Shown: positions 42,565 through 45,013 of the stretch, piece by piece
Layout: each line of letters opens with the position of its first letter
Numbering within the stretch: position 1 is the stretch's first letter
Position numbers and translations under genes: made by a program
The notes under the pieces: generated by a model
The model's input: the letters and a program-made list of their open reading frames with translations, nothing else
Told to the model about the DNA's origin: nothing
Databases searched by the model: none
Source of the DNA: Alloascoidea hylecoeti
Taxonomy: Eukaryota
Length of the DNA stretch: 64,000 nucleotides
Assembly (NCBI GenBank): GCA_001600815.1
Contig: BCKZ01000002.1
Span: 310,001 to 374,000 of the forward strand
Reading direction: 5' to 3'

Positions 42565-43278
42565 ATGTTTCACAGAGCTTTACGGCCATCTATTGTAAGA
42601 AATTAGCTGATACTATATATGATATTTCTAAGAAATGTAATTAATGATGTTCTCTTTAAAGTTAAAGCCTCTTCAAAAGTCTCTTATCAACTCTTCCACA
42701 TCTAGATTGGGTCTTGCCCGATTCCTATCCAGTGATGTGAGAAATGCCATTGAACAAGCTATTGGGTCAGCTAAAGTGGTTCTATTTATGAAAGGTACCC
42801 CAGAACAACCTCAGTGTGGTTATTCAAGAGCTATGATTCAGTTATTAGGTAACCAAGCTGTTGATCCAAATAAGTTTGCTGCTTACAATGTGCTTGAAGA
42901 TGAAGAGCTACGAAGTGGTAAGTCACATATGCTCCGAAGGTATTAAGAAATTATTAATAACACTGCAAGTTTAGGTATCAAGGAGTTCAGCAACTGGCCA
43001 ACTATTCCTCAGTTATATCTTGACGTAAGTCCTCTTTTCTTCACAAATAATAATACGAATACTAACTCCAGTTAATAGAAAGAATTTGTTGGTGGTTGTG
43101 ATATTGTTATGGAATTGAGCAAAACGTATGTATATGTGAACAAATTATATAACTCGTCGGATCTAACAGATGTATATATAGAGGCGAACTATCTGAATTA
43201 CTTGAAAACTCTGGTGCACTCGTTGAAGAGGACAATGGTACCGAATCAGCAGATGTAAAACCTGCTGAACGATCTTGA
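42565..43278 (+). CDS. GRX5: Mitochondrial monothiol glutaredoxin; exons 42565-42594, 42662-42917, 42975-43024, 43079-43125, 43182-43278
   Basis: VVLFMKGTPEQPQCGYS, IKEFSNWPTIPQLY, EFVGGCDI; four introns. Confidence 0.93.
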
Positions 43279-43912
43279 GCTTCAATATTTAAACGACCAT
43301 ATCATCATAACTTTAGTGAATACCCTGAAGTTATCCGGGACATTGTGAATAGAGATCCTGGTCTGTGCTCTGTAGATTCTATCACTTTCCAGTCATAAGA
43401 CAATATATATTTAAATGCTTATAAATATTATAATTATATGATCAAGGACTGTCATAAACAAGTAAGGAATAACATGTTAAATATAATTCTAGATAAGTGT
43501 AATAACTACTCAAATAAGAAATGTGTTTAATGAAGCAGGTAATCAAATTGTAAAAAAAAAAGAGCTTCTTTTTGCGTCATGGACGTCCTTCGGTTACTCC
43601 TAGGAGCAGTCGGGTTGGATCCTGAAATATAATATAACGCATTGTTTATATATCATAGAAACTGTTCCCAATCTAAATCGGAAACAATTTAAATACATGG
43701 CTATAGAAATGCAATTGTGAAATATTCTTGACCAATACAGTCTTTCTACTAAAGATAACACAACACGTAAAATAATTTTCATATAAAAATTATACATAGT
43801 ATCTATCATTTATTTAACTCATCATAAACCCTCAAAATCAATTCTGTTAATAAAATAAATAATTTGAAATGCTTTAAACTGTATGCAATAGATTTAGTAT
43901 GAAATGGAACAC

Positions 43913-44401
43913 CTAAAGAGCAACGACGATGGTTAGTAAATATTAAGACATAATCTTCATATAGTTCTGACAAAATGAAAGCATAATTCAGTTAAAAATC
44001 CATAGGTATCAACAAGGACAGAAAATTGTTCATTGACAATCTCAAAGTATATGTCTCCCTGTGCCATTGATCAATGATGGTGAAATAAGCGGCCCAAGAG
44101 CCTGACATCATTAATTCCAGAATAAGGGAAGCCATATAAATAAAGAATGATATATTGAAAAATTACAAATATTTTCAAACCAAATTGATATGACTTTCTT
44201 TTATATTATCAAAAATGACTTAAGAAAACAAGCGGTAGTCTCTGCCAGTGTCTCTGATATCACTAGTTCTATCACATAGTAAGAGTAAGTCATTTGATAT
44301 TTTCGTAGTCAATGAACAAATCCAATCAGACCTTTTACCAGATAACATCATTAATGTCACTTTCGTAACCACGATGATGAAATTTTTAAAATAAAACTTA
44401 C
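43913..44401 (-). other. 489-nt spliceosomal intron in the 3' UTR of the DUF1748 gene (or a non-coding host transcript)
   Basis: GTAAGT donor at 44401, TACTAAC branch at 43938-43932, TAG acceptor at 43913; no meaningful ORF across it. Confidence 0.75.
43984..44356 (-). ncRNA. Intronic composite C/D-H/ACA guide RNA, U87/SCARNA5-like, predicted to guide 2'-O-methylation of U5 loop 1
   Basis: ATGATGT-TATCTGGTAAAAGG-T-CTGA; perfect 12-bp helix 44319-44308/44037-44026; hairpin plus H-box-like ATATAA; terminal CTGA about 55 nt before the branch point. Confidence 0.65.
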
Positions 44402-44434: not shown

Positions 44435-44850
44435 TCATGTCTCAGTTTCATATTCACTGGACGTAGATCTAGATACCTCGGGGGTAGAAGGGGTTGCGGG
44501 TGGTGCAATTGTCTTACGCCCAAAGTAAGGGGATTTGTTTGCAAGCACAATCCCTACATTCAGAAGATACTCGCCGATAGATAAGTATCTCCTAATCCAA
44601 GAGCGGATTGTAGGATTTTCGATTCTCTTGATGAGAAACCTATTTTCCAAATAAATGTTAATTCAAAAATATGACATGGCCGTCATTTTGATATTTACCC
44701 TAAACCTGATAGTCTCTTAATAGCTGCTAAAATCACAGATATGAGAAAAAGATCAAAAGACCAATGAGCAATGCGTCTCGTCTTGGATATTCCTGTTAAT
44801 ACTAGATTGAGTGCAATATAAGAGGAGACTCCTAGGCATACCAATACCAT
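44435..44850 (-). CDS. Small DUF1748 protein (YKL018C-A/Mco12-like); intron 44698-44640, possible extra 5' intron
   Basis: RIAHWSFDLFLISVILAAIKRLSGL|..SWIRRYLSIGE..KSPYFGRK; lies near HCS1 as YKL018C-A does in S. cerevisiae. Confidence 0.8.
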
Positions 44851-45013
44851 ATTTTCAGAAATTTATGTGCTCACAAAAGGGTGGCAACGGTCGATGAAGT
44901 TATTTGAAAGGAGGCTGAACATTTATATTACCCGATCACTACAATAAAAATGTAGCTATAATGACTTACCCACTAGTTGTTATATACCTATACAATTAAA
45001 TAATATTAAGTCA

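Follow-up and report, generated by a model that had tools for sequence, protein, structure and literature searches.

A likely intron-encoded composite guide RNA directed at U5 loop 1 in Alloascoidea hylecoeti

In a 64-kilobase (kb) stretch of the Alloascoidea hylecoeti genome (contig BCKZ01000002.1 of assembly GCA_001600815.1, positions 310,001 to 374,000 of the forward strand; hereafter the window, with positions counted from its first letter), a putative intron is likely to encode a composite guide RNA of about 370 nucleotides (nt), in which a terminal box C/D unit directed at loop 1 of the U5 small nuclear RNA (snRNA), the loop by which exons are held in splicing, carries a two-hairpin, H/ACA-like insert between boxes D' and C'. 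This RNA is a real and probably functional member of the composite U5-loop guide class, no member of which has so far been described in this lineage. Such a reading, in the manner of human U87/SCARNA5, had been put forward in an earlier note on this DNA, and it is now supported by the register of the guide, by the layout of the elements and by the homology of one hairpin of the insert. The anatomy of the RNA and this homology are shown by the sequence analysis, and from them we infer its expression, its assembly into a ribonucleoprotein and both modifications that it would install. Unless stated otherwise, folds, motif counts and Rfam scans refer to the window, on both strands for the covariance search, and all the elements of the guide RNA described below lie on the minus strand.

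The identity of the guide is carried by a compact block of box C, antisense element and box D'. Box C (AUGAUGU, 44345..44351), which is recognized in the sequence and in the Rfam alignment and matches 6 of the 7 positions of RUGAUGA, is separated by UA from guide 1, UCUGGUAAAAGGU (44330..44342), which consists of the core UCUGGUAAAAGG and one U (44342-44330) and is followed by a perfect box D', CUGA (44326..44329), likewise found in both the sequence and the Rfam alignment. Guide 1 is antisense to GCCUUUUACCAGA, that is U5 loop 1 and its putative 3' flank, with 12 Watson-Crick pairs and one G-U pair. The loop part of this complementarity is documented, the conserved U5 loop being the 9-nt GCCUUUUAC with the human form GmCCUUmU-psi-ACm-psi, where psi stands for pseudouridine (PMC7960923). 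The fifth nucleotide upstream of D', A44334, stands opposite the second U of the U run of GCCUUUUAC, and the claim that the D+5 rule points to the second loop U, equivalent to human Um41, therefore holds. Moreover, the 13 nt of guide 1 together with D' are identical, and in the same register, to the consensus of the Rfam family SCARNA6 (RF00478) in an E-value-mode alignment (GUAAAAGGUCUGA), and the printed consensus agrees with the 5' end that the earlier note had given for human U87. In human U5, Um41 is assigned to scaRNA5/6 (PMC7960923). A chance origin of the block is excluded; the window contains the pattern TGATG-N6-GGTAAAAGG-N-CTGA a single time, and the number expected by chance is 0.01 even with a tolerance of 2 mismatches. 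The 12-mer complement occurs exactly once.

The block lies within a putative host intron of 489 nt (43913..44401), predicted from splice signals read in the sequence. An ATG (44404-44402) adjoins the 5' splice site GTAAGT (44401-44396), from which box C is 44 nt distant, and the intron continues to a branch point TACTAAC (43938-43932) and a 3' AG (43914-43913). The intron call is based on their position on either side of the RNA and on its strand, the signals themselves showing no enrichment in the window (GTAAGT, 30 occurrences versus 27 expected; TACTAAC, 10 versus 7.5). All the elements named in the earlier note are present and their coordinates could be fixed, and the predicted RNA body spans about 373 nt (43984..44356), or up to 44364 and 43977 if an outer stem is kept. 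The arms of this stem, GAAAG (44360..44364) and CUUUC (43977..43981), provide the outermost pairs of the minimum-free-energy fold, and an inner CAU/AUG pairing adds 3 base pairs (bp).

Six nt after D' begins a closing helix whose arms, UUGUUCAUUGAC (44308..44319) and GUCAAUGAACAA (44026..44037), are complementary over 12 of 12 positions and enclose 270 nt, as the earlier note had described it; when the 390-nt segment was resampled 300 times under a first-order Markov model, a perfect inverted repeat of at least 12 bp appeared in 4 cases. The insert contains a first hairpin (44213..44295) with a 10-bp stem, AAAUGACUUA/UAAGUCAUUU (arms 44295-44286 and 44222-44213), extendable by UAUCAA/UUGAUA, then an AU-rich hinge of about 80 nt (44131..44212) and a second hairpin (44055..44130). 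In the fold of this last segment alone, hairpin 2 has a lower stem UUCCCU/AGGGAG and an internal loop of 9 + 9 nt, whose strands UAUUCUGGA(A) (44124-44115) and (U)CAAUGGCAC (44070-44061) would form a pocket below an upper stem of 9-10 bp (44114-44106 with 44079-44071). An ACA box (44052..44054) follows directly. In H/ACA guides the pocket lies 14-16 nt upstream of the ACA, and hairpin 2 fits this spacing since its pocket-to-ACA distance, measured from the base of the upper stem, is 15 nt. The motif CAATGGC-N8-ACA has a single match in the window, at hairpin 2, with 0.09 expected. Beyond the closing helix, a degenerate C'-like box UGAUAC (44006..44011) stands 13 nt past the 3' arm, at the place of a UGAAGAC box in metagenome relatives, and is followed by guide 2, CUAUGGAUUUUUAA (43992..44005), and by box D, CUGA (43988..43991), 73 nt before the AG of the 3' splice site. 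The order of elements would be C, guide 1, D', closing helix, C', guide 2 and D, and the insert would sit between D' and C', an arrangement shared with human U87/U88/U85.

The relatives in question come from metagenome contigs scanned for ATGATG-N2-9-GTAAAAGGTCTGA, which gave at least 118 loci (L001-L118), 99 of them unique among the matches listed. For 29 of these 99 listed unique loci, the 5' flank of box C can form a stem of at least 7 bp with the 3' flank of a CTGA located 112-713 nt downstream, against a mean of 2.6 and a maximum of 7 loci with permuted flanks, and it follows that RNAs with this U5 guide are typically long; the distances from box C to CUGA in those 29, again among the matches listed, are mostly 230-520 nt. 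Rfam was run on 20 such loci, of which five had a SCARNA6 match at E<=0.01 and only one, L075, exceeded the threshold, with 139 bits; by this score L075 is a bona fide SCARNA6. Three others of the 20 (L026, L032 and L068) gave no Rfam match. Long U5 loop 1 guide RNAs carried by many metagenome contigs thus appear to escape the SCARNA6 model of Rfam, with 1 of 20 scanned above threshold. Second guides differ among the listed loci, ending in CAGAUACU-CUGA in L001 and L005, in CAGAUAU-CUGA in L016 and its relatives and in GUUUUCAA-N-CUGA in L065 and L075.

Closest to the window RNA among the matches listed is a subgroup of 8 sequences, L007 (identical to L025 and L087), L010, L024 (identical to L109), L026 (nearly identical to L105), L032 (identical to L037), L035, L068 (identical to L069) and L098, whose contigs are probably fungal, judging from the guide extension and a eukaryote-like size; a kinase fragment of L007, compared with the ESM Atlas, yielded no usable taxon. 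All 8 guides read xUGGUAAAAGG, as in the window, and the layout is the same: C, U5 guide, D', closing helix, two internal hairpins, C' (UGAAGAC), second guide and D. The subgroup shares with the window RNA the element order, the guide xUGGUAAAAGGUCUGA, a closing helix that adjoins both D' and C' (with its 3' arm immediately before C', as in CUGCG/CGCAG, CUGCA/UGCAG and CUGG/CCAG) and a CAAUGGC-N8-ACA hairpin, but its RNAs are longer (400-710 nt), with extra internal structure and a GC content of about 50%. The second guide is AAACUGAAAAGAY in 6 of the 8 members (L007, L010, L026, L032, L035 and L068), is different in L024 and lies beyond the end of L098; the window RNA is without it. The complement of this guide, RUCUUUUCAGUUU, may resemble U2 immediately 3' of its branch-point recognition region. 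At about 60-100 nt before box D, between the ACA and the closing helix, L007 and L032 also conserve a pair of elements, CUGNUGAYGG ... CCUGAGA, which looks like an additional internal C/D-like (K-turn) unit and is absent from the window RNA.

Support for an H/ACA-type insert comes from the 3' hairpin of this subgroup. Above its lower stem this hairpin opens into an internal loop (xAAUGGA on the 5' side, CAAUGGC on the 3' side), which is topped by an upper stem, and an ACA stands eight nt after CAAUGGC. RNAalifold predicts 16 pairs for it from 7 sequences, 11 of them with compensatory changes. A covariance model of this hairpin and ACA, R1, built from 7 metagenome sequences with the window excluded, found its best match in both strands of the 64 kb inside the insert (44140-44048, minus strand, 16.9 bits), with a rough and modest E-value of 0.016, the next match, elsewhere, having E 0.38. 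On 100 other loci (123,937 bases) the model gave no match at E up to 1, and two family members with very long hairpins count among the loci that it missed. The stems of hairpin 2 remain paired although their sequences are not those found in the relatives. On this evidence, the 3' hairpin of the insert is homologous to the covarying hairpin and ACA of the metagenome subgroup.

With these relatives at hand, it can be asked whether the locus might instead hold two RNAs, the upstream block being separate and an internal copy of AUUAAUGAUGU (44116-44106) acting as the C box of a small nucleolar RNA (snoRNA) of the C/D type, 125 nt long and ending at the D box 43991-43988. Indeed, there are two copies of the 11-nt AUUAAUGAUGU, one at 44355-44345 and the other at 44116-44106, and both have the same immediate flank. 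The internal copy, however, forms the upper stem of hairpin 2, relatives carry unrelated sequence at this place, which argues that it is not a conserved box, and the sequence from there to the terminal D box contains no CUGA. Both the 12-bp helix and the outer stem GAAAG/CUUUC favor the long form, which is also that of L026, L032 and L068, with stems of 5-7 bp. With the internal copy lying within a hairpin stem and the relatives being long, the two-RNA reading was rejected, and we regard it as highly improbable. As a separate observation, the 3' strand of the upper stem of hairpin 2 (44079-44070) can pair with either copy of AUUAAUGAUGU, and pairing with the one at box C might mask this box.

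Returning to the composite RNA, its second guide can be compared with those preceding box D in L075 and L065. The terminal GGAUUUUUAA-CUGA, whose last nucleotide is 43988, resembles AGUUUUCAAG-CUGA of L075 and AGUUUUCAAU-CUGA of L065 in having a similar U run followed by AA, and is one nt closer to D with a U in place of a C, so that the one-nt shift of register pointed out in the earlier note is also seen against these two loci. By the same shift and the same U for C, set against the GUUUUCAA-N-CUGA of L075 and L065, guide 2 would differ from a U4 Am65 guide; U4 Am65 is assigned to scaRNA5 (PMC7960923).

Hairpin 2 suggests a second function, namely pseudouridylation of the fourth loop U, because its pocket is complementary to both flanks of the loop and the 5' strand of this pocket co-varies with the C/D guide's extension. 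Along the 3' side of the pocket runs the invariant strand C-AAUGGC-A, which can pair with UGCC-U-UU, the likewise invariant 5' side of the loop, everywhere but at the first loop U, and the variable 5' strand ends in UGG (UUCUGG in the window), the complement of CCA and of the species-specific stem. In the proposed pairing, the 3' strand AAUGGCA would bind UGCC-U-UU with one U-U mismatch and the 5' strand UUCUGG would bind CCAGAA, leaving the fourth loop U and the A next to it unpaired in the pocket, so that the fourth U would be the target. This would correspond to 6-7 + 6 pairs and one U-U mismatch with the U5 loop flanks; the minimum given for H/ACA substrate pairing is 8 bp (PMC7960923). 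The fourth loop U is psi99 in Saccharomyces cerevisiae and psi43 in human U5, and psi99 is Cbf5p-dependent, with a blank guide entry in the table of a 2021 review (PMC7960923).

Since the 5' strand of the pocket and the extension of the C/D guide would read the same U5 stem, they are expected to co-vary; the window's versions of the two are UUAUCUGG and UUAUUCUGG. With automated delineation of 7 sequences, L024 and L068 being left out as the stem finder picked other 5' partners for them, the co-variation score was 22.0 versus a permuted mean of 15.6 and was reached by 30 of 5040 permutations (2 of 720 without L098), and with manual delineation of 9 sequences the observed score was reached by 0.5% of 20,000 permutations, all these figures being obtained on windows chosen after the pattern had been seen.

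That choice of windows is one of several points that weigh against the composite reading, in its pseudouridylation half or as a whole. In L007, L010 and L068, the nucleotide two before GG is C in the C/D extension and A in the pocket (that of L068 having been picked manually). The mismatch opposite the first loop U is conserved, with U in 7 sequences, C in L068 and a shifted arrangement in L024, and one guide nucleotide is unpaired on each side of the pocket junction. Regarding guide 1, three or four of its pairs lie beyond the loop, in a putative CAGA 3' flank, and depend on the U5 of this species; the complementarity to the adjacent stem claimed by the earlier note is thus a putative one. 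The SCARNA6 match of the window totals 13.5 bits (E 0.18) against a gathering score of 68, with only the C/guide/D' part aligned, and so missed the threshold in the covariance check that the note had proposed; no Rfam family reaches its gathering threshold anywhere in the window. E-value-mode matches to mir-268, CRISPR-DR22 and SAM-III were discarded as chance-level. Folding energies add no support, with z -0.62 for the whole RNA against shuffles, z -0.42 for hairpin 2 and z -1.43 for hairpin 1 (14 of 200 shuffles folding as well as it does). The modest E-value of the R1 match belongs here as well. Finally, the insert follows the H/ACA order in having two hairpins and an ACA directly after the second, but its hinge is long and so AU-rich that ANANNA matches (for example AUAUAA and AUAAAA) are uninformative, and no H box can be called. 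The hairpin, the ATATAA and the ACA that the earlier note had seen in the insert are all there; ATATAA, located in the AU-rich stretch 44209-44198, is however uninformative as an H box. Hairpin 1 and the hinge gave no usable evidence for an H box, and the 5' hairpin is unsupported.

Part of these observations would be accommodated by a plain box C/D guide for U5, its long insert being no more than a structured expansion, or else a module for stability or localization, with hairpin 2 devoid of substrate. The absence of a clear H box, the 80-nt hinge, the hairpin energies at shuffle level, the conserved mismatch and unpaired junction nucleotides required by the pocket model, and the very small internal loop of hairpin A in the subgroup (a hairpin in whose interior the family alignment is poor) all speak for it. 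Nevertheless, the hairpin and ACA module is conserved with covariation and was recognized in the window by R1, its 15-nt spacing to the ACA fits the H/ACA rule, and the 5' strand of the pocket tracks the C/D extension across species, which a structural module would not need. A plain C/D guide is hence considered unlikely, although it is the rival to be taken most seriously.

Others of the weak points are found in the terminal C/D unit, and these too stand against a functional composite RNA: the final position of box C is U, C' is only the degenerate UGAUAC, and the terminal stem is made of 5 + 3 bp interrupted by a 3-nt bulge and situated 2-3 nt away from the boxes, an automated search for a contiguous terminal stem of at least 4 bp having found none for the window RNA. 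They are what would be expected from a decaying relic of a U5 guide gene that has ceased to be expressed or to function in this lineage. Furthermore, no 2'-O-methylated snRNA residue is reported for S. cerevisiae, the reference species for work on spliceosome genetics and structure, whose U5 is reported to carry psi99 only (PMC7960923), implying that loss happens among yeasts. A relic seems improbable all the same, given that guide 1 is perfect over 12-13 nt, that boxes C, D' and D are intact, that the 12-bp closing helix is perfect, that the stems of hairpin 2 are intact despite their sequence divergence from relatives, as compensatory changes would leave them, and that intact splice signals surround the RNA. 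A near-identical strain differs from the window by 3 changes in 1601 nt. Positions 43482 and 44833 are substituted, and AT is inserted behind 43949, on the stretch of intron tail that separates box D from the branch point; none of the changes is inside the RNA, and with so few changes the comparison is silent on constraint.

If the composite reading is correct, the RNA would be released by splicing followed by exonucleolytic trimming, after which the C/D core proteins, including the methyltransferase Nop1/fibrillarin, would bind it. Guide 1 would then pair with U5 loop 1 and direct 2'-O-methylation to the second U of UUUU, the equivalent of human Um41. Less certain than this step, hairpin 2 and the ACA may present a pseudouridylation pocket to the same loop. 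In a further and tentative extension, which we regard as possible rather than probable, one intronic RNA would make the equivalents of both Um41 and psi43/psi99, the composite would be an ancestral feature of fungi and belong to a wider eukaryotic class of long U5-loop guides, and its methylation half would have been lost in the S. cerevisiae lineage.

Among known systems, human SCARNA5/SCARNA6 (U87/U88) are close in design. Their genes are intronic, and, like the window RNA, they possess a C box, an antisense element to U5 loop 1 and a D' box in the same register, as well as a second guide before box D. In human U87 the H/ACA domain comes right after D' (nt 27-183), as it would here (PMC3884663). 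The window RNA departs from them in its distance to the SCARNA6 model, in an inserted domain without detectable sequence similarity to theirs and in a hairpin 2 pocket that appears to address U5 itself. In its proposed dual function it would resemble human SCARNA10 (U85), a compound C/D and H/ACA RNA described as directing 2'-O-methylation and pseudouridylation of neighboring nucleotides of the U5 5' loop (PMC5733568), which is the same way of working; the targets of U85 are C45 and U46, and those of the window RNA would be the U41 and U43 equivalents. Human ACA57, listed for U5 psi43 (PMC7960923) and compared here by its table name only, has the same predicted target as hairpin 2, the element in the window being however a domain inside a C/D RNA.

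In fungi outside Saccharomyces, box C/D guides acting on snRNAs have been described, including CD29 (U2-Am31), CD11 (U6-Am47), CD24 (U5-Am62) and CD26 (U2-Gm183) in Neurospora crassa (PMC2780460) and Afu-191 (U2 Am32), with a 92-nt cDNA and a 90-nt northern band, in Aspergillus fumigatus (PMC2377427). Like the window RNA these are C/D guides for fungal snRNAs; unlike it, none among those described is directed at U5 loop 1, and those with sizes given in these accounts are short. As far as its account of snRNA targets goes, the A. fumigatus screen has no C/D snoRNA for U1, U5 or U6 (PMC2377427), and the snRNA mentions in a fungal snoRNAome paper cover only U6 and U2 and not U5 (PMC5824354). Our literature search, outside of which many subscription papers lie, found no fungal or yeast U5 loop 1 guide and no fungal composite small Cajal body-specific RNA (scaRNA), and novelty is therefore not proven by it.

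Several neighboring features of the window deserve mention. Upstream of the RNA on the same strand (44440-44990), a TATATAA lies at about 44986 and a second GTAAGT at 44969-44964, and the stretch from about 44640 to 44440 (minus strand) is GC-rich, palindrome-rich and structured, with a CCUACA...UGUAGG hairpin, AGATCTAGATCT-like repeats and no Rfam match in the window scan; another non-coding RNA carried by this host transcript may lie here. On the other side, an isolated GC-rich island in AT-rich DNA (43570-43630) contains the adjacent palindromes GGACGTCC, CTCCTAGGAG and GGATCC, followed by a plus-strand run of A. A GRX5-like glutaredoxin gene (42644-43280, plus strand) carries three introns of 55-58 nt, at 42918-42975, at 43025-43079 and, for the third of about 56 nt, from a GTATGT near 43127, with the 5' sites GTAAGT, GTAAGT and GTATGT and the branch sites TAATAAC-like, TACTAAC and CTAAC. 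A helicase encoded in the window is nearest to Ascomycota clusters in the ESM Atlas, and together with it the three short introns in one gene indicate an ascomycete richer in introns than S. cerevisiae.

A mapping across Saccharomycotina has linked splice-site preference to snRNA-modifying factors (PMC10581693), and with its GTAAGT sites and several short introns in one gene, the organism considered here is of the kind concerned by that mapping. Moreover, provided that the fourth loop U is the target of the H/ACA half, the CAAUGGC-N8-ACA hairpin would give a search image for the unlisted guide of U5 psi99. A review notes that direct evidence on the role of Um41 and psi43 in exon alignment is not yet available (PMC7960923), and the RNA, if it acts as proposed, would offer a small-genome and potentially tractable system in which the roles of both residues in this process could be addressed. 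It would also mean that methylation of U5 loop 1 was inherited by fungi and was later lost in some of their lineages.

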